DNA of 64,000 nucleotides from Brevundimonas sp. (GTDB lineage Bacteria > Pseudomonadota > Alphaproteobacteria > Caulobacterales > Caulobacteraceae), in NCBI RefSeq assembly GCF_029945885.1, contig NZ_JAQSDK010000033.1, forward strand, positions 38,822 through 102,821, read 5' to 3'. A program made the translations under genes and the position numbers. How positions within the stretch are numbered: position 1 is the first letter of the stretch; every line of letters begins with the position of its first letter. This document shows positions 923 through 64,000 of this stretch, one piece after another. The notes under the pieces are model-generated. The model did no database searches, was not told where the DNA came from, and saw only the letters and a list, made by a program, of their open reading frames with translations.

Positions 923-925
923 GGG

Positions 926-4142: not shown

Positions 4143-4169
4143 GCCACGGGGCGTGGCCGCTCGGCAGCC

Positions 4170-5162: not shown

Positions 5163-5179
5163 CGTTTCTCTCCGGATGG

Positions 5180-6894: not shown

Positions 6895-6950
6895 GCCAGA
6901 TTGCCTGATTCGCGGCCCGGCGAATCATCACGAACGCGCTTTCCTGTGGA

Positions 6951-7493
6951 TCAGCCGCCGAAACCGCCGCCGTCGAGGAAAGCCTGTTCCTCCGGCGTGG
7001 TTTCCCGCCCGAGGGCGGCGTTGCGATGCGGGAATCGGCCGAAGCGGACGATGATGTCGCGATGGATACGGCCCCATTTTTCGCTGTCGGCGTCACCGGC
7101 GACCAGGGCCAGATAGCGGTCCTGATCCTCCAGCCGCTCGGAATGTTCGAACGGCAGCAGCAGGAAATTGCGCAGGGCCGGGGCGACCGCGTCATGGTGA
7201 CCGCGCGCGACCGCCGCATTGGCCAGGCTGAGGGCCAGCGGGTCGGTGGCGAAGGCGTGGCCGGTGTCGCGGAACACATTGCGCGGAAACTGGTCCAGCA
7301 GGATCAGCAGGGCCAGGGCCCCGTCCGGCGTCGCCATCCAGTCGTCCAGCTCGCGACGGGCCGCGGCGAAATGGGCGGTTTCGAAACGCTGCCGGAATTC
7401 GGCGTCGAACGCGTCATCCTTGGCGAACCATTTGCCGGGTCCGGCCTGCTGCCAGAAGGTGACGACGGTTTCGGGGGGGATGGCGCTGATCAT
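6951..7493 (-). CDS. DUF924 family protein
   Basis: WFAKDDAFD...LDQFPRNVFR...PFEHSE...IIVRFGRFPHRN pattern; start may be 7493 or 7529. Confidence 0.85.
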   Translation of the reverse strand: MISAIPPETVVTFWQQAGPGKWFAKDDAFDAEFRQRFETAHFAAARRELDDWMATPDGALALLILLDQFPRNVFRDTGHAFATDPLALSLANAAVARGHHDAVAPALRNFLLLPFEHSERLEDQDRYLALVAGDADSEKWGRIHRDIIVRFGRFPHRNAALGRETTPEEQAFLDGGGFGG

Positions 7494-13060: not shown

Positions 13061-13069
13061 GGCGCGGAT

Positions 13070-14854
13070 TCAGCCGGCCAGAACCTCGGCCGACATCCGC
13101 TCCAGCAGGGCCCCGCCCTGGCCGATGGTGGCCAGACGGCTGGAGACATGGCCCAGCACATTGGCGGCATAGACCTCGTACAGGGTGATCTTGCCGTTGA
13201 GCCAGACCGTGTCGCTGTCACCGGCGTCGAGACGGGTCTTGGCAGCCAGGGCCCCCTTGGCCAGCATCCAGCCCCCGATCACATCGCCCAGCAGCTTCAG
13301 ATAGGCGTCAGCGGCGGCCAGCACATCGGCCCCGCCGTCCTCGGCGGCCTTGCGGTCCAGGATCCACAGGGTGGCGTCCTCGACGGCCTCGATGGCATTG
13401 GCGAAGCGTTCGACCGGCTTGCCCTCGAACAGACGCGGCAGGTCCAGCAGGGTGGTCTTCATGGCCAGGATCACGGCCTTGGCCGAGGCTCCGCCGTCCT
13501 GGCCCAGTTTGCGCCCGACCAGGTCGATGGCCTGGATGCCGTTGGTGCCTTCGTAGATGGGGGCGATGCGCGCGTCCCTGTAGTACTGGGCCGCGCCGGT
13601 CTCTTCGATGAAGCCCATGCCGCCGTGAATCTGCACGCCGAGTGAGGCGACCTCGCAGCCGACATCTGTCGACCAGGCCTTGGCGATCGGGGTGAACAGG
13701 TCCTCGCGACCCTTCCAGGCCTGACGCTCCTCTTCGGTGGCCGCGTGACGGGCCAGGTCGGCGGCGACGCCGGTCGCCAGGCAGATGGCCCGGGCGGCGG
13801 CGATCTTCGCCTTCATCACCGACAGGGTGCGACGCACGTCCGGATGATCAAGAATCGGGGCATTGGCCTCACCGGTCCAGATCGAGCGACCCTGCCGCCG
13901 GTCGGCGGCATAGGCGAGGGCGTGCTGATAGGCGCGTTCGGCGATCCCGACTCCTTCCACGCCGACGGCGAGGCGGGCGGCGTTCATCATCACGAACATA
14001 TGCGACAGGCCCTGGTTGGGCCGGCCCACCAGTTCGGCGGTCGCGCCCTCATAGCTCATCACACAGGTCGGCGAGGCGTGGATGCCCAGCTTGTGTTCGA
14101 TGCCGACCGGCTTGAACGCGTTGCGCGCGCCCAGCGACCCGTCGGGAGTGACCGCATATTTCGAGGCCAGGAACAGGCTGATGCCCTTGGGTCCGGCGGG
14201 CGCGTCCGGCAGGCGGGCCAGCACCAGATGGACGATGTTGTCGGTGGCGTCGTGGTCGCCCCAGGTGATGTAGATCTTCTGGCCGTTGAGGGCATAGGTG
14301 CCGTCGCCGTTGGGCGTGGCCGTGGTCGTCAGCGCCCCGAGGTCGGAGCCGGCCTGGGGCTCGGTCAGGACCATGGCCCCGGTCCATTCGCCCGAAACCA
14401 GCCGGGTCAGATAGATGGCCTTCTGGGACTCGGTACCATGCGCTTCCAGCGCCTCGATCGAGGCCAGGGACAGCATCGGGCACAGGCCGAAGGCCATATT
14501 GGCCGAGTGGACGGTCTCATAGGCCGCCAGTTCCAGCGCCTTGGGCAGGTGCTGGCCACCGGAGTCGGTCGAGGCCGTCAGGCCGGTCCAGCCGCCGGCC
14601 GCAAACTGGCGATAGGCGTCGGCGAAGCCCGGGGCGGCGGTGACGTCACCGTCGGCAAAGCTCGATCCCTGCAGGTCGCCGATGCGGTTCAGCGGGGCCA
14701 GGACCCCTTCGGAGAACTGGCCGGCGGCCTCGAGCACGGCCCGCATCAGGTCGCCGTCATAGTCCGGAAACGCCCCGCTGGCGGCGACCATATCGATGCC
14801 GGCGATGGCTTCGAGGGTAAAGGCGAGGTCGCGGACGGGCGCGCGGTAGGTCAT
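13070..14854 (-). CDS. Acyl-CoA dehydrogenase
   Basis: MTYRAPVRDL, MVLTEPQAGSDLG, GQKIYIT, IYEGTNGIQA motifs. Confidence 0.95.
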   Translation of the reverse strand: MTYRAPVRDLAFTLEAIAGIDMVAASGAFPDYDGDLMRAVLEAAGQFSEGVLAPLNRIGDLQGSSFADGDVTAAPGFADAYRQFAAGGWTGLTASTDSGGQHLPKALELAAYETVHSANMAFGLCPMLSLASIEALEAHGTESQKAIYLTRLVSGEWTGAMVLTEPQAGSDLGALTTTATPNGDGTYALNGQKIYITWGDHDATDNIVHLVLARLPDAPAGPKGISLFLASKYAVTPDGSLGARNAFKPVGIEHKLGIHASPTCVMSYEGATAELVGRPNQGLSHMFVMMNAARLAVGVEGVGIAERAYQHALAYAADRRQGRSIWTGEANAPILDHPDVRRTLSVMKAKIAAARAICLATGVAADLARHAATEEERQAWKGREDLFTPIAKAWSTDVGCEVASLGVQIHGGMGFIEETGAAQYYRDARIAPIYEGTNGIQAIDLVGRKLGQDGGASAKAVILAMKTTLLDLPRLFEGKPVERFANAIEAVEDATLWILDRKAAEDGGADVLAAADAYLKLLGDVIGGWMLAKGALAAKTRLDAGDSDTVWLNGKITLYEVYAANVLGHVSSRLATIGQGGALLERMSAEVLAG

Positions 14855-17936: not shown

Positions 17937-18713
17937 TCAGGAATTTCCTGATCGGGTGAATATCCAGTCGGTGGCGGTGGAGGCGGTCTTGTCGAAGCGG
18001 TAGCCGTCGCGGTCATAGGCCTTCAGACCCTCGCTTCGATCAATTCGTTCGTCGATCGCGAACCGGGCCATGCCGCCCCGGGCCTTCTTGGCGAAGAAGG
18101 AGATGATGCGGCTCTCGCCATCCTTTTCCTCGCGGAAATGCGGGGTCACGACCGGGATTTTCAACGCCTTGGCGTCGACCGCACCGAAATATTCCTGACT
18201 GGCCAGATTGACCAGAACCGGATCGGCCTGGCCTGCGGCATCGGCGTTCAGCTGCTGCGAGATGCGGTCGCCCCAGAAGTCATACAGGCTGCCGCCGCGC
18301 CGGGTCTTGAGCCGGGTCCCCATCTCCAGTCGATAGGGCTGGATCCGGTCCAGCGGACGCAGCAGGCCGTACAGGCCTGACAGGATGCGCAACCGGTCCT
18401 GGGCCCAGGCCAGTCCCACGGCGTCGAGGTCGCGGGCGGCCAGCCCCTCATAGGTGTCGCCGGCGAAGGCCAGGGCGGCCTGAACCCCCAGGTCGTCGGC
18501 GGGTTCGGGATCGAAGGCCTGGAAACGGTCGTGGTTCAGGTCGGCCAGCTTGTCCGAGATCGACATCATCCGGCGCAGGTCGGCCCGGGTCAGGCGGCGG
18601 GTGGTCTTCGACAGGGTGGCCGTGTCCTCGGCGAATCGCGGCGTCGTGGCGGGCAGGGACGGGTCGGCTTCGGTGAAATCCAGCCGCTTGGCCGGGGACA
18701 GGACGATCAGCAA
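17937..18713 (-). CDS. yaaA: Peroxide stress protein YaaA (UPF0246)
   Basis: SPAKRLD, ILSGLYGLLRPLD, YRLEMG, NLASQEY, AKKARG motifs. Confidence 0.96.
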   Translation of the reverse strand: MLIVLSPAKRLDFTEADPSLPATTPRFAEDTATLSKTTRRLTRADLRRMMSISDKLADLNHDRFQAFDPEPADDLGVQAALAFAGDTYEGLAARDLDAVGLAWAQDRLRILSGLYGLLRPLDRIQPYRLEMGTRLKTRRGGSLYDFWGDRISQQLNADAAGQADPVLVNLASQEYFGAVDAKALKIPVVTPHFREEKDGESRIISFFAKKARGGMARFAIDERIDRSEGLKAYDRDGYRFDKTASTATDWIFTRSGNS

Positions 18714-18793
18714 GGCGAGGCTCCGGGCGGCGTGCGCCGTCTCTTAGGCGGGTTTGATGACGAATTGAACCGGGTGTGCGACGTCACAGCGCC

Positions 18794-18818
18794 GGAACGC
18801 CCGGGGACGCAGGGGGTT
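18794..18818 (+). promoter_or_regulatory. Putative EcfG/SigT promoter
   Basis: GGAAC-N17-GTT, 33 bp upstream of ATG 18852. Confidence 0.6.
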
Positions 18819-18851
18819 GGTTATGTATCCCCGCAGCAAGGAGCACGTTCC

Positions 18852-19085
18852 ATGACCAGCGAGACAAACACCCCGGACACGACCCAGCCCGACACGACCC
18901 AGAAGGATCTGGCGCAAAAGGCGATGGACCTGAAGTCCAGGGCCGCTGACGTCCCGCATCCGCAGTCCGGCCGCACGGCGGACGACGGCATGAATCCGAC
19001 GCCGCGGGCGGGCATCGCCCCCTCCGGCGCGTTCGGGGCCGAGGGGCAGCGCCCGGTGCTGGAACGGTCGCGCAAGGTGCGCTGA
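18852..19085 (+). CDS. Small hydrophilic hypothetical protein, 77 aa
   Basis: AAGGAG RBS then MTSETNTPDTTQPDTTQKD...LERSRKVR. Confidence 0.7.
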   Translation: MTSETNTPDTTQPDTTQKDLAQKAMDLKSRAADVPHPQSGRTADDGMNPTPRAGIAPSGAFGAEGQRPVLERSRKVR

Positions 19086-19137
19086 ACCGGCCCGATTCCG
19101 CCCAGACCAACCCACGCTCAACACCGACGGAGACTTC

Positions 19138-19461
19138 ATGCAGGTCCAGATCAACACGGCCAATAATATCGACGGGCGCGAAGCCCTTGTGTCCGCCATG
19201 GAGACGGACGTCCGCACCGGCCTGTCCCGCTTTGACGGTCGGCTGACCCGCGTCGAGGTTCATCTCGGCGACGAGGCCAATGTCCAGCACGGCGGGGCGG
19301 AAACCCGCTGCATGATGGAGGCGCGTCCCCAGGGGCTGGATCCGATGACCGTCACCGACCATGCCGCCACCCCCGACCTGGCCCTCAGCGGGGCCCTGCG
19401 CAAAATGACGACGGCGCTTGATCGGGAGTTCGGCAAGCTGGATGCCCACCGGGGCCGCTGA
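19138..19461 (+). CDS. HPF/RaiA-family ribosome-associated protein (short variant)
   Basis: MQVQINT...RLTRVEVHLGDE...RCMMEARPQG pattern; GGAG RBS. Confidence 0.85.
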   Translation: MQVQINTANNIDGREALVSAMETDVRTGLSRFDGRLTRVEVHLGDEANVQHGGAETRCMMEARPQGLDPMTVTDHAATPDLALSGALRKMTTALDREFGKLDAHRGR

Positions 19462-19470
19462 GCCCCGGTT

Positions 19471-19494
19471 CCGGCCCGGCCCCCGGGCCGGTTT
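19471..19494 (+). terminator. Putative intrinsic terminator
   Basis: CCGGCCCG-gcccc-CGGGCCGG followed by TTT. Confidence 0.55.
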
Positions 19495-19566
19495 GATGGG
19501 CAATTGAATCGGTACCGGGATTGTTGCTTACTGCCTTCGGGCCCGGCCGGCCCGGGAGTCGTGACG

Positions 19567-20376
19567 ATGACGCAGAGGCGCCTGGCGCGCGGGGATTTTC
19601 TCGGGGCGCTGCGGAAGTCCGTCTCGGGTGGCGGATTTTGCGTCGAGCTGCGCATCGCCACCCTGCCGCCCGAGGCCGTGGTCGAACACGCTCATGACGA
19701 GGCCCATTTCATCCTGCCCCTGGATGAGGGTTATCGCAGCCTCGCCGACGGCGACCGGTCCGGGCGAGGGGGGGCGGTCCGGGCCGGTGCGCTGATCTAC
19801 AATCCGCCGGGTACGACCCATCAGGACTGTTTCGACGAGGCGGGCGGCCGGTTTCTGTCGGTCTCGACCCCGGCGTCGGCAGCGATCGGCGGCGACCGGC
19901 CGGTCCTGCTGGACGATGCCGTGTCGACGGCGGCGGTGCGGCGGCTGGTCGGGGGCTGTATCCGCTTCGAACCCGGCGATGACCTGGCGCTGGAGGACCA
20001 GGCCCTGGCCATGGTGGCGGTCGCCGGGCAGCGCGGGGCGGGAAAATCGACGGGCACGCCCGACTGGCTCGAAACCGCCCGGGACATGATCGCCGACCTC
20101 GCCTGCCGGCAGGGGTTGGAGGTGCGCGGCATCGCGGCGGCGGTCGGTGTGCACCCGGTGCATCTCGCCCGCACCTATCGGCAGTGTTTCGGTATCAGTC
20201 CGGGGGATGCGATCCGCCGCCGTCGGGCCGATATCGCCATGGCAGCCCTGGCGCGCGGCCTGCGCCCGATCGAGGCGGCGCAGGCCGCGGGCTATGCGGA
20301 CCAGAGCCATATGACCCGCGAACATGGACGTATCTATGGGGTCAGCCCGACGGTCAGCGCGGCCGCCCTCGTCTGA
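19567..20376 (+). CDS. AraC-family transcriptional regulator with cupin sensor
   Basis: EHAHDEAHF cupin; VHPVHLARTYR and GYADQSHMTR HTH motifs; start uncertain (19561 or 19567). Confidence 0.92.
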   Translation: MTQRRLARGDFLGALRKSVSGGGFCVELRIATLPPEAVVEHAHDEAHFILPLDEGYRSLADGDRSGRGGAVRAGALIYNPPGTTHQDCFDEAGGRFLSVSTPASAAIGGDRPVLLDDAVSTAAVRRLVGGCIRFEPGDDLALEDQALAMVAVAGQRGAGKSTGTPDWLETARDMIADLACRQGLEVRGIAAAVGVHPVHLARTYRQCFGISPGDAIRRRRADIAMAALARGLRPIEAAQAAGYADQSHMTREHGRIYGVSPTVSAAALV

Positions 20377-20445
20377 AAATGTTGCACCGGTTCAAGACAG
20401 TGGGTGATGAACCGGGTCATTGGTCCGGTGAAACCGGAGTGTCCC

Positions 20446-21546
20446 ATGCGTAATCTCGTCCTCGCCGCCTGCCTGTCCCTGCTCGCCGCCGCGCCCGCCC
20501 TGGCGCAACAGACGGATGACTGGCCGATTGTCGTTCCGGCCGCGGGGTCAGCGACCGCCGAGGCCTTCACCCGGTTGGACACGGCGGTGCGCGCCGGCGA
20601 ATTCCAGAAGGTGACCAGTGTGCTGGTCGCCCGGCACGGCCGGGTCATCCACGAGAGCTATTTCGATGATGCCGGGGCCGAGGGACGGCGCAACACCCGT
20701 TCGGTCACCAAGACCGTGACCGCCATGCTGGTCGGGGCCGCCATCGCACGGGGGTCGATCAGCAGCGTCCAGGCCCCGGTTCTGCCGTTCATCGCCGACC
20801 ATGGCCCGTTCGACAATCCGGACCCCCGCAAGGCGCGGATCACGATCGAGGACCTGCTGACGATGAGTTCGCTGCTGGAGTGCGACGACGACAACCAGTT
20901 CTCGCGCGGCAACGAGGAGCGGATGTATCTGATCGAGGACTGGGTGAAATTCGCCTTTGATCTGCCGATCCGCGGATTCGCTGCCTGGGTGCCCAAGCCG
21001 GAAGACGCCCCCTACGGCCGGTCGTTCAGCTATTGCACGACCGGGGTGACCACCCTGGGGGCCGTGGTGCAGTCGGCGACCCACGAGGCTCTGCCCGACT
21101 TCGCCCGTGAGGTTCTGTTCACGCCGCTGGGCATCACCGGTGAGGAATGGCAGTTCTCACCGACCGGGCTGGCCCAGGGCGGCGGCGGCCTGGGGTTGCG
21201 CAGTCGTGACCTGCTCAAACTGGGCGAGATGCTGCTGGACGGCGGGCGCTGGCATGGGCGTCAGGTGCTGCCGGAGGCCTTTGTCACGGCGATGACCACA
21301 CCCCACGCCTCGGCCGGCGAGGGGCGCGGCGACTATGGTTACCTGACCTGGCTGCCGTCCTACACGGTCAAGGGCGTGAGCTATCCGGCCTGGGCCATGG
21401 CCGGGACGGGTGGCAACAAGGTCGTGATCATTCCGGCCCTGCAGGCTGTCGTGGTGGTGACGACCGAGAACTACAATGTCCGCAATCCCCACGGCATCGC
21501 CGACCGCCTGATCAGCGAGCACGCGCTGGCGGCGCTGGTGCCCTAG
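20446..21546 (+). CDS. Secreted serine hydrolase (beta-lactamase/NylB-like family)
   Basis: Signal peptide; RSVTK (SxxK), FSYCT, AGTGG; GGAG RBS. Confidence 0.9.
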   Translation: MRNLVLAACLSLLAAAPALAQQTDDWPIVVPAAGSATAEAFTRLDTAVRAGEFQKVTSVLVARHGRVIHESYFDDAGAEGRRNTRSVTKTVTAMLVGAAIARGSISSVQAPVLPFIADHGPFDNPDPRKARITIEDLLTMSSLLECDDDNQFSRGNEERMYLIEDWVKFAFDLPIRGFAAWVPKPEDAPYGRSFSYCTTGVTTLGAVVQSATHEALPDFAREVLFTPLGITGEEWQFSPTGLAQGGGGLGLRSRDLLKLGEMLLDGGRWHGRQVLPEAFVTAMTTPHASAGEGRGDYGYLTWLPSYTVKGVSYPAWAMAGTGGNKVVIIPALQAVVVVTTENYNVRNPHGIADRLISEHALAALVP

Positions 21547-22948
21547 AACAGGACCGCCGGGTTCATGATCCGCTGCGGGTCGATGGCGGCCCGAATGGCC
21601 TGCATGGTGCTGATCTCCAGCGGCGACTTGTAGCGGCGCGCCTCGTCGGTCTTCAGCCGGCCCAGACCGTGTTCGGCGCTGATCGAGCCGTCATAGCGGG
21701 CCACGATGTCGTGGACGATCTGCGAGCCTTCCTCCCAGCGGGCGAGGAAGGCTTTCAGGTCCCCGCCCTTCGGGCACAGCACATCGTAGTGCAGATTGCC
21801 GTCACCGACATGGCCGAAGGCGCTGACCCGGGCCCCGGGGTGGAAGCGTTCGACCGCGGCCGTGGCCTCTTCGAGAAACGCGGCGATGCGTGAGACGGGG
21901 ACGGAGACGTCGTGTTTCCAGCCGCCACCCTCGGGCTTCTGGGCCGCCGACTGTTCCTCGCGCACCTTCCAGAAGGCGGCGCGCTGGGCGTCGTTCTGGG
22001 CGATGGCGGCGTCGGTGATCAGCCCGGTCTCGAAGGCGTGGGTCAGCAGCCGCTCCATCGCCGCATCGGCCGCGCCCGGCTCGCCGGACACCAGTTCGAT
22101 CAGCACAGACCAGGGCGGGGTGCTGTCCAGCGGCTCGCGGGTGTCGGGGATGTTGGCCAGCACGAATTCCATGCCGATCCGCTTCATCAGCTCGAAGGCC
22201 TCGACCCCGCCGCCGGTCTCGGCCTTGGCCCGGGCCAGCAGCTGGATGGCGGCGGCCGGATCGTCGAGGCCAACCACGGCCGTGGCCCGGCTGCGCATGA
22301 CCGGGAACAGTTTCAGCGTCGCCGCCGTGATCACGCCCAGCGTGCCCTCGGCCCCGATCAGCAGCTGTTTCAGATCATAGCCGGTGTTGTCCTTGCGCAG
22401 CCGTTTCAGGCCGTTGAACATCTGGCCGTCGGGCATGACCGCCTCGATCCCCAGCACCAGATCGCGCATCACGCCGTAGCGCAGCACGGCCGTGCCGCCG
22501 GCATTGGTCGAGATCACCCCGCCGATCGTGGCACTGCCCTCGGCGGCGAGGCTGAGCGGGAACATCCGGTCGACCGCGGCGGCGGCCTGCTGCGCCTCCA
22601 GCAATGTGACCCCGGCCTCGACCGTCATCGCGTCGTCCAGCGGGGTCACGTCACGCACGGTGCGCAGCCGACGGGTCGACAGCAGCACCTCGCCGAACGG
22701 GATCTGACCCCCGACCAGACCCGTGTCCCCGCCCTGGGGCACGACGGCGACGCCGTGTTCGGCACAGACGGCCACGGCCCGGGCCACCTCGGCCGTCGAG
22801 CGTGGCATCAACATCAGCGGGGTGTGGCCGTTCCAGCGGCTGCGCCATTCGGTCAGCCAGGGGGCGATCTCGGACGGATCATCGGTCCAGCCGCCATCGC
22901 CGACGGCGGATTTCAGGGCGGCGAGGGCGGCGGGCGAGGGGAGGGGCA
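21543..22948 (-). CDS. FAD-linked oxidase (D-2-hydroxyacid dehydrogenase family)
   Basis: PQGGDTGLVGG, TNAGG, RKDNTGYDL, GHVGDGNLH, SAEHGLG motifs. Confidence 0.92.
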
Positions 22949-55089: not shown

Positions 55090-55181
55090 GGAGACGTGGC
55101 CGAGTGGCTTAAGGCAACGGTTTGCTAAATCGTCGTACCCTGTAAGGGGTACCCAGGGTTCGAATCCCTGCGTCTCCGCCA
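55090..55181 (+). tRNA. tRNA-Ser(GCT)
   Basis: 92-nt class II cloverleaf GGAGACG...TTGCTAA...long variable arm...GGTTCGAATCC...CTCCGCCA. Confidence 0.97.
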
Positions 55182-55406
55182 GAACCCTATAAAAAGGGGT
55201 TTCATAACAACATCTTGCTTGTTGCGGGTGGTAACCTCCCTAAATATGACCCTAAAGATGGGTCGGCTGGTAGTCGTAGCGACCCACCGCTCGATACGCG
55301 CCTGCGTCGCACCCGACTGGCCTCGCACTGGACATCGATCTCGTCACGCTTCGCCCGGTGGGGCGGTCAAACGATAACTTGTCTCCACCGAAGCGGGGCG
55401 CTGCTG

Positions 55407-56765
55407 TCAGACTGCCGCGCTGTGGCGCTTCGGGGCGGTGATGGAGCGGTTGTCGAAACAGGCGGCGACGACCCGGACGAGCCGACCCATGGCGTGCGGT
55501 ATGCGGAGACGGCGGCCATCGATCCGGCACAGGCCGTCGGCCTGCAGGGCCCGGGCGGCCTTGATGGCCGGGTCGAGCGCCGAGACTTCGCGGCCGTGGT
55601 CCAGGCATACGGCCCCCACATCGACCTGGAGATCGCACATCAGTCGCTCGATCACGGCCCGGCGCAGGCGGTCGTCTGACGTCGTTTCCAGCTGGCGGCC
55701 GACAGGCAGCTGCCCTGCCGCGATGTCGGCCGTCCAGTCGTCGACCCGCAGTCTGTTCTGGGCATAGGCATAGGGCAGGCTGCTGATCGCCGACGGGCCC
55801 AGCCCGATCAGCACCGCGGACGGATCGTCCGTATAGCCCTGGAAGTTCCGATGCAGGCTGCCCTCGGCCAGGCGGGCGGCCATGGAGTCACCCGGGCGGG
55901 CATAGTGGTCCATGCCGATACGGACATAGCCGTGCGCCGCCAGCACCGCCTCGGCGGCCTCGGCCTGGGTCCAGCGACCCGATCCATCGGCCAGGTCCGC
56001 GTCGCGGATGACCGCCTGGTGCTTCTTCATCCACGGCACATGGGCATAGCCGAACAGGGCGACCCGATCGGGTTCCAGCGTGAGTGCGGTCTCCATGCTG
56101 GCCGTGACATTCTCCGGGGTCTGGCCCGGCAGGCCGTACATCATGTCGAAATTGATCGCATCGATCCCGCCGCCGCGCAGGGCCTGGACGGCCGTGGCGA
56201 CCTGTTCAGAGGGCTGTATCCGGTTGACCAGGCGCTGGACCTCCAGATCGAAGGTCTGCACGCCCAGGCTGGCCCGGGTCACCCCTGCCGCGCCCAGACC
56301 CCGGGCGAAGTCGCCGTCCAGGGTGCCGGGATCCAGTTCCACGGCGACCTCGGCACCGGGACGCAGGCGGAAGCGTCCGGCGAGGAGGGCCAGCAGTCCG
56401 GTGAAGTCGTCGGTGTTGAGGCTGTTCGGACTGCCGCCGCCGAAATGCAGATGAGCCGTGCCGGCATGGGCGGGCAGGGCGTCGCCCCACAGGTCGATCT
56501 CGCGTTTCAGCTGGTCGAGGAACCGGGCGACCCGCGCATAGCCATTGGGCACGCTGGTATGGCAGCCGCAGTACCAGCACAGCCGCTCACAGAACGGGAT
56601 GTGGACATAGATCGACAGGGTGTCGTGCGACTGGATATCGCCCAGCCAGCGGCGGAGGTCCGCGTCATCCGTTGCCGGCTGGAATGCCAGGGCCGTGGGA
56701 TAGCTGGTGTAGCGTGGCAGGGCGCGGGTCGCGTGGCCCAGCAGACGGTCGGACAGGGGAGTCAT
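55407..56765 (-). CDS. hemN: Oxygen-independent coproporphyrinogen III oxidase
   Basis: PRYTSYPT, CERLCWYCGC radical SAM motif, RNFQGYT. Confidence 0.95.
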   Translation of the reverse strand: MTPLSDRLLGHATRALPRYTSYPTALAFQPATDDADLRRWLGDIQSHDTLSIYVHIPFCERLCWYCGCHTSVPNGYARVARFLDQLKREIDLWGDALPAHAGTAHLHFGGGSPNSLNTDDFTGLLALLAGRFRLRPGAEVAVELDPGTLDGDFARGLGAAGVTRASLGVQTFDLEVQRLVNRIQPSEQVATAVQALRGGGIDAINFDMMYGLPGQTPENVTASMETALTLEPDRVALFGYAHVPWMKKHQAVIRDADLADGSGRWTQAEAAEAVLAAHGYVRIGMDHYARPGDSMAARLAEGSLHRNFQGYTDDPSAVLIGLGPSAISSLPYAYAQNRLRVDDWTADIAAGQLPVGRQLETTSDDRLRRAVIERLMCDLQVDVGAVCLDHGREVSALDPAIKAARALQADGLCRIDGRRLRIPHAMGRLVRVVAACFDNRSITAPKRHSAAV

Positions 56766-57343
56766 AGCGTCATCGCCTCCGCATGAGCGAGGTCATCAGG
56801 CGTGTTGATGTTGAGGAAGGGATCCCGCGGGTCGATCGGCCAGTCGACGATGACGCGGCCGGCCGCCTCGCTTAGACCGTTCAGGGACAGCCGTCCGTTC
56901 CCGGCGCGCTGGACGAGAACGGGCAGGGTGGTGGTGCGCCACAGGGCACATATCGGATGCAGTCGCCCGCCGCTGGCGGCGACGGCGACCGCGACGTCAT
57001 CCTTCAGGGCCTGATCGAGCCGGGCCAGAAGGTCAGGGGGCAGGAATGGCATGTCGCACGGGATAGTGAGCACGCGATCGGTGCCGTTGAGGTCAGCCCA
57101 TGCCAGAGCCGAGGCCAGACCGCCAAGGGGGCCGGGAATGTCGGGGTCGTCAAGGATCACCGGCGCCAGCACATTGCTGACCTGTGTCGGGTTGCGCAGG
57201 ACCAGGACCACCGGGGCAGCCCATCCGTGGGCTGCTTTCAGCGAATGGGTCAAAAGGCGGCTCCCGGCGAGGGGCCTGTCCGGCTTGGCCCCGCCGATCC
57301 GCTGCCCGTCCCCGCCGGCCAAAACTGCCGTGACGATACTCAT
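56762..57343 (-). CDS. mobA: Molybdenum cofactor guanylyltransferase
   Basis: LAGGDGQRIGG, GPLGGL, PCDMPFL, FLNINTPDDL. Confidence 0.93.
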   Translation of the reverse strand: MSIVTAVLAGGDGQRIGGAKPDRPLAGSRLLTHSLKAAHGWAAPVVLVLRNPTQVSNVLAPVILDDPDIPGPLGGLASALAWADLNGTDRVLTIPCDMPFLPPDLLARLDQALKDDVAVAVAASGGRLHPICALWRTTTLPVLVQRAGNGRLSLNGLSEAAGRVIVDWPIDPRDPFLNINTPDDLAHAEAMTL

Positions 57344-58011
57344 GATGGCCGACCCTTGCCCGCGGCTCGCGACCGCGATCGCGGTTTGGGGCAGACAGGC
57401 TCAAGACGGCTGACGTCGTCGGGACCCGTGACCGTGGTCTCCATGTCCCGGACCAGACCGTCGCGAATGGAGTAGATCCAGCCATGGATCGACAGGGGCT
57501 GACCCCGTTTCCAGGCGTCGGTGATAAAGGGGTTGCGGGACAGGGCGCGGACCTGGGCCAGCACGTTCTTCTCGCAGATGAAATTGATCCGCGCCTCATG
57601 ATCCTGGATGGCCGCGAGTTCGTCGTCATGGTCCTCGCACAGCCGTTGAACGCGCTGCATCCAGTGGTCGAGGATCCCGTGGCGCTGCCCGTCGAGCACG
57701 GCCCGGACGCCGCCACAGCCATAGTGGCCGCAGACGATGATGTGGCGAACCTTCAGCGACTCGAGGGCGAACTGCAGGACGGCCAGCAGGTTCATGTCCT
57801 GGGCGGGGGCCAGGTTGGCGACGTTGCGATGGACGAACAGTTCGCCGGGTTCCAGACCGACGATCTCATTGGCGGGAACGCGACTGTCCGAACAGCCGAT
57901 CCAGAGATATTCGGGCGACTGCTGCGCCGATAGCCTTCGGAAAAACTCCGGATCGATCCGGGCCTTGGCCGATGCCCATTTGAGATTGTTTCGAAGGAGG
58001 TCCTCGATCAC
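57340..58011 (-). CDS. can: Beta-carbonic anhydrase
   Basis: CSDSRV, HRNVAN, HYGCGG motifs. Confidence 0.95.
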   Translation of the reverse strand: MIEDLLRNNLKWASAKARIDPEFFRRLSAQQSPEYLWIGCSDSRVPANEIVGLEPGELFVHRNVANLAPAQDMNLLAVLQFALESLKVRHIIVCGHYGCGGVRAVLDGQRHGILDHWMQRVQRLCEDHDDELAAIQDHEARINFICEKNVLAQVRALSRNPFITDAWKRGQPLSIHGWIYSIRDGLVRDMETTVTGPDDVSRLEPVCPKPRSRSRAAGKGRPS

Positions 58012-58598
58012 GGCGTCGCTCCCGCCGATCCGGGGCCATCCGGTGGGAACGCAGGATCAGGGCTGTCCAGGAATACCCCCCGTCGGGCCGCCATCCGGGT
58101 GCTGAGGGCGTGCAGGTCCCGGGGTGTCAGGCGCAGGCGCGCGATCGGCAGGATGACCGCATTTTCCAGCGCGATATGGCGACGCTCGTGCAGGGCGAAA
58201 TCCGTGAACAGGCGGCGCGTTTCCAGATCATGACCCGGTGGTTGCCCCGCGATCAGCGCCCGTTCCAGCAGGGTGCCCAGGGTCCGGGTCTGCTCCATGT
58301 CGTCGCGATGCTCGGCCGACAGCGCGCCCAGCAGGGGGCCGAGTTCATCTTCCGGCAGGCAGCGACGGCGCAGCAGGGGGAACAGGTCCTCTTCCTCGTC
58401 GATGACGTGAAGGGCCATGTCGTGGCGCAGGAAGGTCAGAATTTCCTCCGCCTCCTCGCGCAGCAGCACGGTCGCGGTGCCGACGCGCTCGATCAGGCGG
58501 CACAGCTGACGGTGGCGATAGTGTTCAGCGAACAGCCAGTTCAGCGGTTCGTGAGCAAGGCCCGCGGGCAGGGGCTCGATCTGAGGTGTCTGGCTCAT
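58008..58598 (-). CDS. Hemerythrin-domain protein
   Basis: EH...HVIDEEEDLFP...EH...HERRHIALEN di-iron pattern. Confidence 0.88.
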   Translation of the reverse strand: MSQTPQIEPLPAGLAHEPLNWLFAEHYRHRQLCRLIERVGTATVLLREEAEEILTFLRHDMALHVIDEEEDLFPLLRRRCLPEDELGPLLGALSAEHRDDMEQTRTLGTLLERALIAGQPPGHDLETRRLFTDFALHERRHIALENAVILPIARLRLTPRDLHALSTRMAARRGVFLDSPDPAFPPDGPGSAGATP

Positions 58599-58629
58599 CC
58601 GGAATGACCTTGTTGCCCCGCCATGACAT

Positions 58630-59856
58630 CTAGAACCGGTATTCCGCAGCGACCCAGACCTTGGTGCGATCGGGGAAGGCGACCTGGGCACCGTCGAAGC
58701 GGGCGGCCTTGATCTCGATGGCCCGACGCGGGTCCAGAACCAGCCGGCCCGACAGGTCGAGCTCCTGGCCGTATCGGCTCGATCCGTCGGCGTCGCGAAT
58801 ATCGTGCCAGGAGGCGGTCAGCGTGGCGCTGGTTCCGACGGGCGGGTGGGCGATGGCATGGCTGACCGTGGCGGACACATCGCGCAGCCCGTCCCCGGGC
58901 GTATTCAGGAACACATCCGCCCAGCCCTGGAAGGCGTGCAGGGTCGCCAGCGGGGTCTGGAAGGCCCGGGTTCCGTTGCCGTCCATCCGCTCTACGGCCA
59001 GGGTGCCTGTCAGAGACCCGCGCTTCAGGCCCGCGGAGACCAGTCCGTAGTCCAGGTCGAAGCTGGCGGGATTGCTGCCGTAGTCAGACTGGCGCGCATA
59101 GTCGACGGCATACAGGGCCGACCAGTCGGCAGACAGGGCGTGGCTGCCCTCCAGTCGCGCGCCCCAGGTCGCCGAGGATTGGGCCGGAGCATTGGAGAAA
59201 TCGAGCAGATAGCCATAGGCCGTCAGCTTTCCGACCGGAGTCGGGGCCTCGACATTGATCAGGTGACTGTCGGAATTCCATTCCCCGACGGGGCTGTCGT
59301 TCCCGAAGATCCGGTGGACCCGATCGATCCAGACATAGGTCACCGTCATCGGCTTCAGGGTGCGGGTCGTCACCTTGACGGCGTCGAACGTCTGCTCGTT
59401 CTGACGGAAGCCGACATTGCCGACGAAGCGGGCGTTGCCGAGAATGATGCGCTGGCGGCCCAGGACGACCTCGGTGTCCGGGAGGCCGGTCCAGGTCAGC
59501 TGCAGGCGGTTCAGTTCAATCCCTTCCGGGTCGGCCACCACCGGATAACTGGCCGGACCGTGGATGGTGTCATTGTAGTCGTCGACCAGGGCCACGACCC
59601 CCTCACCCTCGACCAGCAGTTTGAACCCTGACCAGTCCGGGCTCTGCCAGCCAAGGCGCGCGCGGAGTGTTACGGCCGTGGCATCGTCAAGCCCGTCCTG
59701 ACTGACCCCCTCGTAGCGCAGGCGGCTGTCGAACAGGATGTCGCCCGCTTGCGTCGAGGCGACTGCGGGGCCGGTGGCCGGGGTCTGGGCATGGGCCATG
59801 GCGGGGGCTGCCGCCAGGGCCAGGGCCAGCAGGGCGGGGCGGGAAAGGGTCTTCAT
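58630..59856 (-). CDS. Outer-membrane beta-barrel (alginate-export/AlgE-like family)
   Basis: Signal peptide; GRQRI, RFVGNVGFRQNEQTFDA; C-terminal EYRF beta-signal. Confidence 0.8.
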   Translation of the reverse strand: MKTLSRPALLALALAAAPAMAHAQTPATGPAVASTQAGDILFDSRLRYEGVSQDGLDDATAVTLRARLGWQSPDWSGFKLLVEGEGVVALVDDYNDTIHGPASYPVVADPEGIELNRLQLTWTGLPDTEVVLGRQRIILGNARFVGNVGFRQNEQTFDAVKVTTRTLKPMTVTYVWIDRVHRIFGNDSPVGEWNSDSHLINVEAPTPVGKLTAYGYLLDFSNAPAQSSATWGARLEGSHALSADWSALYAVDYARQSDYGSNPASFDLDYGLVSAGLKRGSLTGTLAVERMDGNGTRAFQTPLATLHAFQGWADVFLNTPGDGLRDVSATVSHAIAHPPVGTSATLTASWHDIRDADGSSRYGQELDLSGRLVLDPRRAIEIKAARFDGAQVAFPDRTKVWVAAEYRF

Positions 59857-59857
59857 C

Positions 59858-60970
59858 TCAATTTCTCCGGATGAGGGTGAAGGTCTTCACCGGCACCGTC
59901 AGTTTTGATTTCAGGATCGCCCGCACGCAGGCCAGCGCCGGATCACCGGAGCCCTGGGCAGCCGAGATCAGTCGGGTCCAGCTTTCGTCGCCGGCACCCT
60001 GGGCAAAGTTGGAAATCTCTCGCTGAACAAAGGTCGCGAATCCGATCCCGGCCGCTTCAGCGACTTCACGGGCCCGGGTGGCCAGGGCCGGATCGGCCTC
60101 GTCCAGCCAGGTCTCGAGTCGGGCCGCGACGGCCGCCTGGTCGTTCAGGAGGTCCCCGAGGGACAGGGCCCCGTTGGACACGGTGCCGTCGATGGTGACG
60201 CTGAGCGCCACGCCGCGTTCCCGGGCTTCGGCCGCAAGTCCGGACACATAGCGGGTCGCCGCTGCGGTCCAGGCGCGGCTTTCCAGATGGAGGGAGATCT
60301 GGGGCTGGACGTGTTCGAACGGCAGCCGTTGGCCATCGATCCGCCGGTCGAGGCGCAGGATGTGCCAGCCGAAGCGGGACTGGACCGGTTCGGTCGCTGT
60401 CTCGCCGGCCAGGAGCCTGTCCAGTCCGGCCTCGACCTCGGGGGCGAGATCCCCGGGCGAGAGTTGGCCGAGAGAGCCTCCGACTCCCTTGGACGGGCAG
60501 TCCGAGAGTGAGGCCGCCAGGGCCGCGAACCGCGACGGATGTTCAGCCAGTTCGGCAATGGCCGCCAGCGCGATCTCCCGGGCATCGGCCCAGGCGGCGT
60601 CGTCGGCACCCTTGGGCGCGCACAGGATGTGGGAGGCCTGGGTCAGCCGGGGTGTCCGGAACCTGTCCGGCGCGCCGTCATAGACCCGGCGACATTCGCT
60701 TTCGTCGGGGCGCTCGACCGTGATCTCGGCGTCGAGAACGGCGCGGACGAGGGCTTCTTCCGGCGTCTCTTCCCGACCGTCATCGTCCAGCTCTGCCTCG
60801 GCCTGCAGACCCAGTTGATGCGCCCGATCCAGCAGCAGGGCCTTGATGGCCAGGGCATGAGCGGCCGCGTTCCGGGCCGCCTCAGCCGTGGCGGCCGGGT
60901 GGTTCTGGGCCTCCTCGGCGACGAGACGCTCGGGGAGTTCCACCCCGTCGACAACGATGACGGCGTTCAT
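59858..60970 (-). CDS. PpiC-type peptidyl-prolyl isomerase (NarM/NifM-like) with extra C-terminal domain
   Basis: ASHIL, SDCPSKGVGGSLG, SRFGWHI; ATGA overlap with narI. Confidence 0.88.
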   Translation of the reverse strand: MNAVIVVDGVELPERLVAEEAQNHPAATAEAARNAAAHALAIKALLLDRAHQLGLQAEAELDDDGREETPEEALVRAVLDAEITVERPDESECRRVYDGAPDRFRTPRLTQASHILCAPKGADDAAWADAREIALAAIAELAEHPSRFAALAASLSDCPSKGVGGSLGQLSPGDLAPEVEAGLDRLLAGETATEPVQSRFGWHILRLDRRIDGQRLPFEHVQPQISLHLESRAWTAAATRYVSGLAAEARERGVALSVTIDGTVSNGALSLGDLLNDQAAVAARLETWLDEADPALATRAREVAEAAGIGFATFVQREISNFAQGAGDESWTRLISAAQGSGDPALACVRAILKSKLTVPVKTFTLIRRN

Positions 60971-61686
60971 TTGATGCGCTCCGCGGTACGGCGGGTCACC
61001 GGCATCGGGCGCTTGCTGCGCACCAGCTGCCAGCCCCGGCGGTTGAGGTACCAGACCGGTGCCGACAACATGTGGACCAGCCGGGTGAACGGGAAGACCA
61101 GCAGGATAGTCAGGCCGAGGGTGATGTGGGTCTTGAACACCCAACTGACGTCGGCAACGAAGCCGGCGCTGTAGGGGTTGAAGGTGAAAATGCCTTGGGC
61201 CCAGCTCATGAATTTGATCATTTCAGAGCCGTCCCGGTGTCCCAGCGACAGCGGTATGGTCGCCAGTCCCAGGCACAGCTGCACCATCAGGATCACCAGG
61301 ATGGCGATGTCGCCGAAGCTGGAGGTGTTGCGGATTCGCGGATCAAACAATCTCCGGTGCAGCAGCAGCAGGCCTCCGGCCAGGCAGAAGACCCCGGCGA
61401 CACCGCCCGCGACGATGGCCAGCATCTGTTTGAAACTGTGGGTGACCCCGAGGAAGTCCCATACGGCGACCGGCGTCAGCAGGCCGACGAAATGGCCGCC
61501 GAAGATAGCCAGGATGCCGAGGTGAAACAGCACCGAGCCGAGCATCAATTGCTTGCGCCGAAGCAGCTGGGACGATCCGGTGCGCCAGGTGTATTGCTCA
61601 CGGTCGAACCGCAATACCGATCCGATCGCCAGCACAGCCATGGCGACATAGGGGTAAACCCCGAACGCGATGAAATTCAGGTCCAT
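60967..61686 (-). CDS. narI: Respiratory nitrate reductase gamma subunit
   Basis: YPY, WRTGSSQLL, LFHLG, PFTRLVH motifs. Confidence 0.97.
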   Translation of the reverse strand: MDLNFIAFGVYPYVAMAVLAIGSVLRFDREQYTWRTGSSQLLRRKQLMLGSVLFHLGILAIFGGHFVGLLTPVAVWDFLGVTHSFKQMLAIVAGGVAGVFCLAGGLLLLHRRLFDPRIRNTSSFGDIAILVILMVQLCLGLATIPLSLGHRDGSEMIKFMSWAQGIFTFNPYSAGFVADVSWVFKTHITLGLTILLVFPFTRLVHMLSAPVWYLNRRGWQLVRSKRPMPVTRRTAERIK

Positions 61687-61697
61687 GACGGAAATCC

Positions 61698-62414
61698 TCA
61701 GGCAGCCGCGCCGGAACGGCGGCTCTTTTCTGGCGGTGGGGCGGCGTTCATCGCGGACAGGATGGAATCGGCCTTCGGACAGCCGACCTCTCCAGGTCCG
61801 AAGCTGACGGCCGTTTCTTCCCAGGACTTGTCGAGCGCCTCGAGGTCGTCTGGGTCCTCGTCCGGCTCCTGCATCAGGGCCGCTACGGCGTCGGTGTCGG
61901 GCACCGCATCGGCCAGATTCGACAAGGCTCCGAAGACGGCGCGATAGGGACTATCCCGCTTGTGCAGCCGCTCGGTCAGGGCGGCCAGCACGTGGGCCCC
62001 TTCACCAAGCAGGGAGGCCGCTTCAGCGTCCGGCAGGGTGGACAGGAAGTCCAGGAAGACCGGTAGGTGATCCGGCAGTTCCTTGGCCGACAGCTCGAGC
62101 CCGTAGGAGGCGTAGAGCTCGACCAGGGCGGCCATGGCCTGACCCCGGTCGCGGCTTTCACCGTGGATGTGTTCGTACAGGTTCAGAGACAGCGACCGGG
62201 TGCGGTCGAACAGCTGCACGAACCCCTCCTGCAGATCATAGAGATCGTCGTGTTCCAGCATCCCGGCCAGTTTCTCCAGCGACCGGACGATCGGATCGGG
62301 GACCAGGCCTTCGTTGCGGATGGCGTCGATGGCCTCGGGGGCGGCGGCCTGGATCTCAGCGGTCGGATAGCTGAGCATGAGCGCGAGGGCGCGATAGGTC
62401 AGGGCCATGATCAA
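61698..62414 (-). CDS. narJ: Nitrate reductase chaperone
   Basis: LFDRTRSLSL, GESRDRGQAM, ELPDHLP; start TTG 62414 or ATG 62408. Confidence 0.96.
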   Translation of the reverse strand: MIMALTYRALALMLSYPTAEIQAAAPEAIDAIRNEGLVPDPIVRSLEKLAGMLEHDDLYDLQEGFVQLFDRTRSLSLNLYEHIHGESRDRGQAMAALVELYASYGLELSAKELPDHLPVFLDFLSTLPDAEAASLLGEGAHVLAALTERLHKRDSPYRAVFGALSNLADAVPDTDAVAALMQEPDEDPDDLEALDKSWEETAVSFGPGEVGCPKADSILSAMNAAPPPEKSRRSGAAA

Positions 62415-63934
62415 GCCACCTCTGCTGTGGGTTTGGCGCGTGAGCGCTTGTCAGGCCCGAACAGGCCCAGCTCGGTGCGGCCGCCGGAGCAGCCGTTGCC
62501 GAAGGTGAAGCCGCAGCCGCCCCGGATGTCGAAGGAGTCCTCGGCGGTCTCTCGGTGGGTCGAGGGGATGACGAAGCGGTCCTCGTAATCGGCGATGGCC
62601 ATGATCTTGAACATGTCGTCGATCTGCGCCGCGGTCAGACCGACCTTGGCCGCGAGGGTGTGGTCGATACGACCGTCGATGGTCTTGGCCCGCATGTAGG
62701 CCCGCATGGCCAGCATCCGCTGAAGCGCCAGCGTCACCGGGGCCTCGACGCCCGCCGTCAACAGGTTGGCGAGGTATTTGACCGGGATGCGCAGCTTGTT
62801 CACGTCCGGCATTTCGCCGTCCATCTCAAGCGCCCCGACGGCCGCCGCGTTCTGGATCGGCGACAGCGGCGGCACGTACCAGACCATCGGCAGGGTCCGG
62901 TATTCGGGGTGGAGCGGGAAGGCGATCTTCCAGTCCATGGCCATCTTGTAGACCGGGCTGCGTTTGGCCCCCTCGATCCAGGCATCGGGCACGCCGTCAG
63001 CCCTGGCCTGGGCGATCACCGCCGGATCGTGCGGATCGAGGAAGACGTCGAGTTGGGCCTGGTAGAGGTCTTTCTCGTCGACGCTCGCGGCCTCGCTGAT
63101 GCGATCGGCGTCATAGAGCAGCACCCCCAGATAGCGGATGCGTCCGACGCAGGTTTCGGAACAGACGGTCGGCTGGCCGACCTCGATGCGCGGGAAGCAG
63201 AAGGTGCATTTCTCGGATTTGCCCGAGTCCCAGTTGTAGTAGATTTTCTTGTAGGGGCAGGCCGAGACGCACATGCGCCAGCCACGGCATTTGTCCTGGT
63301 CGATCAGGACGATACCGTCTTCTTCCCGTTTGTAGATCGCGCCTGAGGGACAGGCCGCGACGCAGGTCGGATTCAGGCAGTGCTCACACAGCCTGGGCAG
63401 GTACATCATGAAGGTGTTTTCGAACTCGCCGTACATCTCCTTTTCGATGTCGGCGAAATTGTAGTCCTTGGACCGCTTTGCGAACTCGCCGCCAAGGATT
63501 TCCTCCCAGTTTGGACCCCATTCGATCTTCTCCATCCGCTGGCCGGTGATGGCCGAGCGCGGACGAGCGGTGGGGAAATGCTTCATCTCCGGCGCGGTCT
63601 GGAGATGAGCGTAGTCGAAGTCGAACGGCTCGTAATAGTCGTCGATCTCGGGCAGGTCCGGGTTGGCGAAAATCTTGGCCAGGATGCGCCATTTCGGGCC
63701 CATCCGCGGCTCGATGTCGCCGTTCTTCTTGCGCCGCCAGCCGCCGTTCCAGCGTTTCTGGTTTTCCCAGTCCTTGGGATAGCCGATGCCGGGCTTGGTC
63801 TCGACGTTGTTGAACCAGGCGTATTCAACGCCCTTTCGGCTGGTCCAGACGTTCTTGCAGGTGACGGAGCAGGTGTGACAGCCGATACATTTATCGAGGT
63901 TCAGCACCATGCCGATCTGGGCGCGGACCTTCAT
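62411..63934 (-). CDS. narH: Respiratory nitrate reductase beta subunit
   Basis: LDKCIGCHTC, CEHCLNPTC, CRGWRMC, CTFCFP Fe-S motifs. Confidence 0.99.
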   Translation of the reverse strand: MKVRAQIGMVLNLDKCIGCHTCSVTCKNVWTSRKGVEYAWFNNVETKPGIGYPKDWENQKRWNGGWRRKKNGDIEPRMGPKWRILAKIFANPDLPEIDDYYEPFDFDYAHLQTAPEMKHFPTARPRSAITGQRMEKIEWGPNWEEILGGEFAKRSKDYNFADIEKEMYGEFENTFMMYLPRLCEHCLNPTCVAACPSGAIYKREEDGIVLIDQDKCRGWRMCVSACPYKKIYYNWDSGKSEKCTFCFPRIEVGQPTVCSETCVGRIRYLGVLLYDADRISEAASVDEKDLYQAQLDVFLDPHDPAVIAQARADGVPDAWIEGAKRSPVYKMAMDWKIAFPLHPEYRTLPMVWYVPPLSPIQNAAAVGALEMDGEMPDVNKLRIPVKYLANLLTAGVEAPVTLALQRMLAMRAYMRAKTIDGRIDHTLAAKVGLTAAQIDDMFKIMAIADYEDRFVIPSTHRETAEDSFDIRGGCGFTFGNGCSGGRTELGLFGPDKRSRAKPTAEVA

Positions 63935-63999
63935 TGGGCTGGCTCCTTGGCCTGAGAAAAGTCGCCGAGCGGCTCGTCGAGCCAGTCGACCTTGGTCAT
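63931..63999 (-). CDS. narG: Respiratory nitrate reductase alpha subunit, 3' end only
   Basis: ...MTKVDWLDEPLGDFSQAKEPAQ* with ATGA overlap onto narH. Confidence 0.85.
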   Translation of the reverse strand: MTKVDWLDEPLGDFSQAKEPAQ

Positions 64000-64000
64000 C

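Follow-up and report, generated by a model that had tools for sequence, protein, structure and literature searches.

Bacteria of the genus Brevundimonas are usually regarded as strict aerobes. In this study, we examine a 64,000-nucleotide stretch (the window) of a Brevundimonas sp. genome (assembly GCF_029945885.1, here G000; 3.13 Mb in 37 contigs), which spans positions 38822-102821 of contig C33 (NZ_JAQSDK010000033.1) and ends within an operon for respiratory nitrate reduction (nar). Family searches placed narH, narJ and narI, then genes for a PpiC-type peptidyl-prolyl isomerase (PPIase), an outer-membrane barrel, a hemerythrin-like protein, a beta carbonic anhydrase, MobA and HemN, in that order and all on the minus strand, at window positions 55407-64000 (Table 1). 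The whole operon comprises 12 genes, narK1-narK2-narGHJI-ppiC-omp-hemerythrin-can-mobA-hemN, over ~15 kb, and its 5' start lies 6.5 kb past the window end; the part inside the window is the distal two-thirds of what we predict to be a single transcription unit. The initial annotation had read narG through hemN as lying on one strand of the window, which holds for narH to hemN, whereas only the last 70 nt of narG (63931-64000) fall inside it.

The genes are tightly packed, with junctions ranging from -4 to +31 nt. Four-nucleotide overlaps (ATGA or GTGA) are found at five of the nine junctions (narG/H, narI/ppi, hemerythrin/can, can/mobA and mobA/hemN), and the other four are gaps of 2, 11, 1 and 31 nt, the 2-nt gap being that from narH to narJ; an earlier description of nearly all junctions as overlaps was generous. 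A scan for promoters and terminators inside the operon gave no internal signal above chance. All reading frames from narG to hemN are intact and the catalytic motifs are present (NarG HxxxCxxxC; carbonic anhydrase C40-D42-R44/H96/C99; HemN CxxxCxxC; two HxxxE motifs in the hemerythrin-like protein), which rules out a decaying remnant. The true start codons of the PPIase and hemerythrin-like genes are the ATGs at 60970 and 58598, respectively.

NarG, NarH, NarJ and NarI all score above the curated cut-offs of their equivalog models (four of four), which identifies the enzyme as a respiratory membrane-bound nitrate reductase. Full-length NarG has 1273 aa (TIGR01580, 2113 bits vs cut-off 1084). 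Its N-terminal FS0 motif reads HGVNCTGSC, and no twin-arginine signal with a hydrophobic core was seen when the N-terminus was read by eye, as expected of a cytoplasmic active site.

Table 1. Features of the nar operon and of the left island boundary. Positions are those of the window unless contig C33 is named.
Feature	Position	Strand	Evidence and remarks
narK2 + narK1	C33 106498-109260 (beyond window)	-	upstream of narG
narG, last 23 codons	63931..64000	-	ATGA overlap with narH start; remainder at C33 102752-106573
narH, Fe-S subunit, 507 aa	62411..63934	-	TIGR01660 977 bits vs cut-off 524; Fer4_11 + Nitr_red_bet_C
narJ, Nar assembly chaperone, 236 aa from ATG	61698..62408	-	TIGR00684 99 bits vs cut-off 59
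narI, dihaem b membrane subunit/quinol oxidase, 239 aa	60967..61686	-	TIGR00351 255 bits vs cut-off 106
PpiC-type, NifM-like PPIase, 370 aa, no signal peptide	59858..60970	-	Rotamase 65 bits; ATGA overlap with narI stop
Exported outer-membrane beta-barrel, 408 aa, uncharacterised family	58630..59856	-	Alginate_exp (PF13372) 19 bits, below cut-off 25.2
Hemerythrin-like di-iron protein, 196 aa	58008..58598	-	PF01814 47 bits; HxxxE motifs
Beta carbonic anhydrase, Can-like, 223 aa	57340..58011	-	Pro_CA 180 bits; PRK10437 234 bits, below cut-off 251; Zn ligands intact
mobA, molybdenum cofactor guanylyltransferase	56762..57343	-	NTP_transf_3 104.6 vs 27; TIGR02665 120 bits, below 151.85 equivalog cut-off
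hemN, oxygen-independent coproporphyrinogen III oxidase, last operon gene	55407..56765	-	TIGR00538 365 vs 325; CxxxCxxC
tRNA-hemN spacer, island side	55182..55406	.	unlike relatives' DNA at the site and other islands' hemN-downstream DNA
tRNA-Ser(GCT)	55090..55181	+	3' end = island left boundary; insertion hotspot in genus

The nar operon is the left arm of a block of ~32 kb (C33 94003-126117). After tRNA-Ser(GCT), the order is hemN-to-narK1 (-), ftrB (+), moaA (-), modABC (+), nnrS (-), ubiV-ubiU-ubiT-nrdJ (-), ytfE (+) and moeA-moaC-moaB-moaE-moaD preceded by a gene for a pyridoxal phosphate-dependent decarboxylase (-). The ubiT, ubiU and ubiV genes are contiguous, overlap the nrdJ stop and make up the three-gene set for oxygen-independent ubiquinone synthesis, each product scoring above its NCBIfam equivalog cut-off (UbiU 481 bits vs 440; UbiV 323 vs 275; UbiT 53.4 vs 46.9). 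NrdJ matches NrdJ_Z (553 bits vs cut-off 400), FtrB exceeds two equivalog cut-offs (350 bits vs 211 and 320 vs 300), MoaB lies above its cut-off, and YtfE falls slightly under both of its own. The decarboxylase (621 aa; C33 124252-126117, window-equivalent 85431-87296) ends 1 nt before moaD, and its position is kept in the islands of two other genomes, G005 and G015.

Four TTGA-N6-TCAA boxes occur in the block, vs 0.33 expected from the genome-wide density, and all four lie in divergent promoter regions: narK1/ftrB (two), moaA/modA and nrdJ/ytfE. A Crp/Fnr regulator, FtrB, encoded beside such boxes in the promoters of its putative targets is what a regulon of the FNR/FixK type would look like. 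FtrB has no cysteine in its first 130 residues, as would be needed for the [4Fe-4S] cluster of a directly oxygen-sensing FNR; it is therefore of the FixK/FtrB type, and the sensing of oxygen must come from elsewhere. Two further Crp/Fnr regulators are encoded elsewhere in the genome. Neither nirK nor nirS was found in the genome, which rules out full denitrification and makes nitrite the predicted end product.

A genome search found no second copy of any nar, ubiTUV, nnrS, ytfE or ftrB gene, nor of any gene for the molybdenum cofactor (Moco). The island copy of mobA is the only one in the genome, and the sole other match to hemN is just 26% identical. MobA makes the bis-molybdopterin guanine dinucleotide (bis-MGD) form of the cofactor required by NarG. 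The block holds the genome's only Moco pathway, along with genes for molybdate uptake, UbiTUV, NrdJ, YtfE, NnrS and FtrB. Among 37 Brevundimonas species, MoaC occurs in eight genomes, seven of which bear nar, and moaC lies within the nar island wherever the contigs allow. The eighth (G028) is nar-less, and its Moco cluster is an unrelated one (37-57% identity). A second, unrelated nar type, in G033, is likewise accompanied by moaE-B-(C)-moeA, mobA and moaA. In essence, Brevundimonas is a genus without Moco, in which nar occurs solely in the company of a complete cofactor pathway. By inference, the 29 of 37 genomes that lack MoaC do not synthesize the cofactor, which would explain why both nar versions travel with the full pathway. 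On the strength of mobA and hemN, the operon had initially been called self-sufficient; the case is stronger than was claimed, as the ~32-kb block carries the only Moco pathway of the genome, in a genus otherwise without MoaC.

Two of these loci deserve separate description. G028 is the sister species of G000, and its Moco cluster, moaA-E-B-C-moeA, lies at 18300-22240 of locus L145 (G028:C131:19400-39399), with no nar genes; presumably, it serves another molybdoenzyme. The G033 locus (L144, G033:C181:1-20000) is arranged as moaE-moaB-(moaC)-moeA / mobA / moaA / narK1K2GHJI-ppi, and its NarG, 69% identical, lies on a long branch outside the Caulobacterales Nar clade.

On its left side, the block is sharply bounded. 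In five nar-less relatives, the left flank is shared with G000 up to tRNA-Ser, homology ends no more than 6 nt from the CCA, and the tRNA-Ser site lacks every gene that G000 has there beyond C33 94228. In G003 and G018 the site is empty, with tRNA-Ser followed, within ~430 nt, by the genes that open G000 contig C20. Insertion directly beside a tRNA 3' end that relatives keep unoccupied is characteristic of a tRNA-associated genomic island. A syntenic block of ~30 kb is found at other chromosomal places in G008, G015, G022 and G005, and the 225-nt tRNA-hemN spacer of G000 shows no homology to what lies downstream of hemN in other nar islands. No tRNA gene adjoins the island in the relatives or in loci from Brevundimonas metagenome-assembled genomes (MAGs), except for a tRNA-Thr 8 kb away in G008. 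The same tRNA-Ser site holds a different 12-kb insert in G023 (L092) and, in G031 (L098, G031:C22:141700-161699, 1-7106), a 7-kb islet with a 21-nt repeat of the tRNA 3' end 7.0 kb downstream. In G005 (L147, G005:C74, 233-14497), the decarboxylase-moaD end of the island lies ~5 kb from hfsA/hfsB, on the opposite side of the same left-flank cluster relative to the G000 site.

The distribution of nar is patchy at every level examined. Eight of the 37 genus species have narG, five with a type at 83-100% identity (narA) and three with a type at 68-70%, and in a family sample of 201 Caulobacteraceae genomes from 27 genera narG occurs in 19 genomes and six genera. The nearest NarH loci are Brevundimonas MAGs (91-92% identity), followed by Phenylobacterium and other Caulobacteraceae, then Hyphomonas and other Hyphomonadaceae, then other Alphaproteobacteria at ~80%; narG was not found in the control genome of Caulobacter vibrioides. 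Both results agree with the Caulobacteraceae background that had been read from the window. On a tree of RpoB and RpoC, the five species with narA are dispersed and each has a sister that lacks nar; the presence of nar requires five changes, as many as with shuffled labels. The NarG+H+I tree is ((G000,G015),(G008,G022)), and the species tree groups these taxa differently. In approximately unbiased (AU) tests, the Nar data rejected the species groupings (p = 2.5e-5 and 6e-47) and the RpoBC data rejected those of the Nar tree (p = 2.5e-117 and 8e-5). Patchy occurrence combined with incongruence to core genes is again characteristic of a genomic island. NarGHI nevertheless falls in a Caulobacterales clade, so donors must have been close, and recent import from a distant phylum is ruled out. 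A contig labelled as a Bordetella sp. MAG (L017, JAFKFS010000176.1) has nar genes inside the Brevundimonas clade, beside the G000 copy, with the same accessory genes; it is probably mis-binned.

These data make it probable that the 12-gene nar operon is the left arm of a ~32-kb Brevundimonas accessory block, situated directly after tRNA-Ser(GCT), which supplies cofactors and oxygen-independent biosyntheses and has been exchanged horizontally within the genus. The package had been proposed to be portable, and agreement of the genes with the species tree was named as the observation that would speak against it; with congruence rejected in both directions, narG in only eight of 37 species and the block missing at the tRNA-Ser site of five relatives, that proposal survives. 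In the mechanism that we envisage from gene content, host FixK-type regulators and the island FtrB would act at low oxygen on the boxes of the three divergent promoter regions. NarK1 and NarK2 would import nitrate and export nitrite, and NarGHI would oxidize ubiquinol and reduce nitrate at its cytoplasmic Mo-bisMGD site, generating proton-motive force and ending in nitrite. The molybdate uptake that the host lacks would be provided by modABC, and the whole Moco pathway, also lacking in the host, by moaA, B, C, D, E, moeA and mobA. HemN, UbiT/U/V and NrdJ would be the oxygen-independent replacements for three oxygen-requiring biosyntheses, those of haem, ubiquinone and deoxynucleotides. NnrS, YtfE and probably the hemerythrin-like protein would counter nitrosative stress, the cytoplasmic PPIase probably aids Nar maturation beside NarJ, the barrel probably passes nitrate or nitrite through the outer membrane, and the carbonic anhydrase probably acts as a buffer of cytoplasmic protons or as a source of bicarbonate. 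The block would derive from a Caulobacterales-specific nar lineage and would have passed horizontally from one Brevundimonas species to another instead of descending along the species tree.

Two other accounts of how the block came to its present site must be weighed. The cluster could be ancestral to the Caulobacterales or to Brevundimonas and have been inherited vertically with many losses, G000 holding a surviving copy. Such a history would agree with a NarGHI tree that follows order and family taxonomy (Brevundimonas nested in Caulobacteraceae nested in Hyphomonadaceae), with a gene order conserved across the order, with a composition near that of the host and with the lack of mobility genes beside the island. 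We judge it improbable all the same, since the Nar and RpoBC topologies reject each other within the genus, the nar-less sisters of all five narA-bearing species would demand ~15 or more losses, the island occupies different chromosomal sites in different species, the break falls exactly at a tRNA 3' end that holds other inserts elsewhere, and the G008-G022 distance is ~0.07 for NarGHI vs ~0.18 for RpoBC. The agreement of the higher-level Nar tree with taxonomy implies, rather, that the genes circulated inside the Caulobacterales and did not come from afar. A possible, if doubtful, second account is that a larger P4-type integrase element sits in tRNA-Ser(GCT), carries the block as cargo and runs from C33 through the assembly gap into contig C15, where an integrase and attR would lie. 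C15 21984-22011 is a 28-nt copy (27/28 identical) of the tRNA-Ser 3' end plus 5-nt flank, in the same orientation and ~130 nt from the 5' end of a P4-like integrase open frame (C15 20622-21857, minus strand; start codon not fixed), and the GC content of C15, 0.638, is among the lowest of all contigs; the repeat-bounded islet of G031 at the same tRNA also fits. Yet C33 itself has neither a far-end repeat of the tRNA 3' end nor an integrase, C15 is not joined to C33, and no contig overlap links it to the C33 right end: between the ends of C33 and those of C15 or C20 we found only short repeats resembling repetitive extragenic palindromic (REP) elements and a shared left-end 55-mer, none of them informative. 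In addition, the 1.3 kb after the C15 repeat is unlike the ancestral right neighbour (C20 145-1830), the integrase adjoins a tRNA fragment and not an intact tRNA, which is unusual for P4-type islands, and other nar-bearing species carry the block without a nearby integrase. No homologue of the C15 integrase was found beside tRNA-Ser in relatives. The shared 55 nt are the first of both C15 and C33, and the REP-like repeats, 45-76 nt long, recur at many G000 contig ends (C20 1-144, C15 23037-23336 and others) and likely cause the assembly breaks. C15 16100-21860 also holds three adjacent tyrosine-recombinase genes (recombinase-in-trio-like), followed by the P4-type integrase.

Several observations weigh against an exchanged, self-sufficient accessory block. 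No integrase, transposase or conjugation gene lies on C33 or near the island in G008, G015 and G022, nor was an integrase found near the island of G005, and the right end of the G000 island falls in an assembly gap. Its composition differs from the host's to a degree that is real but small (GC 0.661 vs 0.678 +/- 0.012 for the genome, at the 9th percentile of genome windows; GC3 0.82 vs 0.858, p = 4e-5). Self-sufficiency is not absolute, as a search of the island found no moeB and NrdJ requires cobalamin. The islands of some relatives lack hemN and ubiTUV, so that the package does not always include the oxygen-independent set. With no nitrite reductase present, growth would be limited by a build-up of nitrite. 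The last two points also favour a different function for the operon, in hypoxic survival, redox balancing or nitrite production within oxygen gradients rather than in true anoxic growth: nitrite is toxic to Sphingopyxis granuli TFA, which carries an analogous cluster (PMC4741004), and control of the FtrB/FixK type answers micro-oxia rather than strict anoxia. We hold this to be rather unlikely, because the block includes oxygen-independent haem, ubiquinone and deoxynucleotide synthesis, needed only when oxygen is truly absent, and because the TFA cluster does support anaerobic growth (PMC4741004).

Strain TFA is the closest known system. Its nar region (SGRAN_3845-3862) contains a strain-exclusive narUGHJI cluster with a divergent ftrB (PMC4741004), and its 12-gene operon, running from narU to moeA, stands beside ubiTUV, fixK and nrdZ, all with Fnr boxes and anaerobically induced (PMC7713065). 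Anaerobic growth of TFA on nitrate, with accumulation of nitrite to toxic effect, has been demonstrated (PMC4741004). The two systems have in common an alphaproteobacterial host from a genus described as strictly aerobic, a divergent ftrB, Fnr boxes at promoters, adjacent ubiTUV, an Fnr/FixK-type regulator, a class II ribonucleotide reductase and reduction of nitrate to nitrite only, the last being a prediction for Brevundimonas. Unlike TFA, the Brevundimonas block adds the only complete Moco pathway of its genus, modABC, hemN, nnrS, ytfE, the barrel and the hemerythrin-carbonic anhydrase pair; it also adjoins a tRNA hotspot, and its transfer within the genus is evident from tree incongruence. 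Growth and regulation were established by experiment in TFA, whereas the Brevundimonas block is known from its sequence. The block is of the same kind as the TFA cluster, in another aerobic alphaproteobacterial genus; what is new is the complete Moco pathway, the tRNA boundary and the phylogenetic evidence of transfer. A literature search for nar genes or islands of Brevundimonas found no dedicated paper.

The narK1K2GHJI-PA3871-moaA1 cluster of Pseudomonas aeruginosa (PA3877-PA3870) likewise has two NarK proteins, narGHJI, a PpiC-type PPIase right after narI and an adjacent, co-regulated moaA paralogue (PMC3568122), and UbiTUV is needed for denitrification in that species (bioRxiv 10.1101/2020.03.22.002311). 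There, however, nar belongs to the core genome, under NarXL/Anr/Dnr control and as part of full denitrification; the operon is without barrel, hemerythrin, carbonic anhydrase, mobA and hemN, and the Moco genes lie elsewhere in the chromosome. The E. coli narK/narGHJI system shares the NarG, H, J and I equivalogs, their topology and the quinol-to-nitrate chemistry. It differs in lacking the PPIase, barrel, hemerythrin, carbonic anhydrase, mobA and hemN genes in its operon, in regulation by an Fe-S FNR and NarXL, and in the use of menaquinone besides ubiquinone.

The block illustrates cleanly how, in nature, a respiratory pathway that is complex and dependent on cofactors can cross between species. 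It predicts that some Brevundimonas respire nitrate to nitrite, a point to consider when interpreting their occurrence in subsurface, wastewater and clinical samples.

The initial annotation had also singled out three accessory genes with no established Nar role. The PPIase is already known as a nar companion, of uncharacterised function: in nearly every one of the 80 nar loci that we compared from Alpha- and Betaproteobacteria, narI is followed by a homologue, and PA3871 occupies the same slot, co-regulated with nar, in P. aeruginosa (PMC3568122). The protein has a C-terminal extension of ~100 aa after the rotamase domain (window 59858-60200), with no family match. The barrel and the hemerythrin-carbonic anhydrase pair recur in other nar loci and are uncharacterised. 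In ~15 further nar loci from Alphaproteobacteria, ppi is followed by the pair; among them are loci of Brevundimonas and Hyphomonas and about half a dozen of Hyphomicrobiales. The hemerythrin-like protein distantly resembles the C-terminal di-iron domain of YtfE (YtfE chains at E = 0.013); control of damage by NO or oxygen for this protein, and buffering of protons or bicarbonate for the carbonic anhydrase, are guesses. Literature searches linking narGHJI to carbonic anhydrase or hemerythrin returned nothing relevant.

The barrel belongs to a large family annotated as hypothetical only. An AlphaFold2 (AF2) model has 18 strands (pLDDT 77, pTM 0.77) and matches OpdQ, OpdL, OccAB4 and AlgE in Foldseek at TM 0.63-0.68; together with the signal peptide, this describes an exported 18-stranded barrel. 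The monomeric 18-strand fold is that of the Occ/OprD proteins and AlgE of P. aeruginosa, at an identity of 10-17%. By sequence the barrel belongs to neither family, with no PDB sequence match, no NCBIfam match and a PF13372 score under the cut-off, and it differs from both in having its gene inside nar operons. Invariant arginine pairs on three strands (R45/R47, R65/R67 and R134/R136; i, i+2) suggest an anion-selective lumen. The gene is tied to nar or narK genes in 15 of 17 Caulobacterales-type loci at varying places (after ppi, between narJ and narI, after mobA or after narK2), and one Hyphomicrobiaceae locus has it in a separate narK1-narK2-omp unit, which argues for a role in nitrate or nitrite transport. 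We know of no bacterium in which a nitrate-specific channel of the outer membrane has been characterised. Expression of P. aeruginosa OpdQ responds to nitrate via NarXL (PMC4694141), and OpdQ is in this respect a precedent for a nitrate-linked channel of the barrel's fold.

We tentatively propose that these three proteins (barrel, hemerythrin-like protein and carbonic anhydrase) may take an active part in Nar respiration, both in Caulobacterales and in other Alphaproteobacteria, rather than being passengers: the barrel as a dedicated, arginine-lined nitrate/nitrite channel of the outer membrane, and the pair as protecting NarG and NarH from NO and buffering the protons or bicarbonate that the cytoplasmic active site consumes. 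All three are conserved companions of nar that are uncharacterised and tractable for deletion studies, and they are the most novel loose ends of the block. In three Hyphomonas loci (L018-L020, ~12250-13500), the barrel gene stands between narJ and narI, within the core operon itself.

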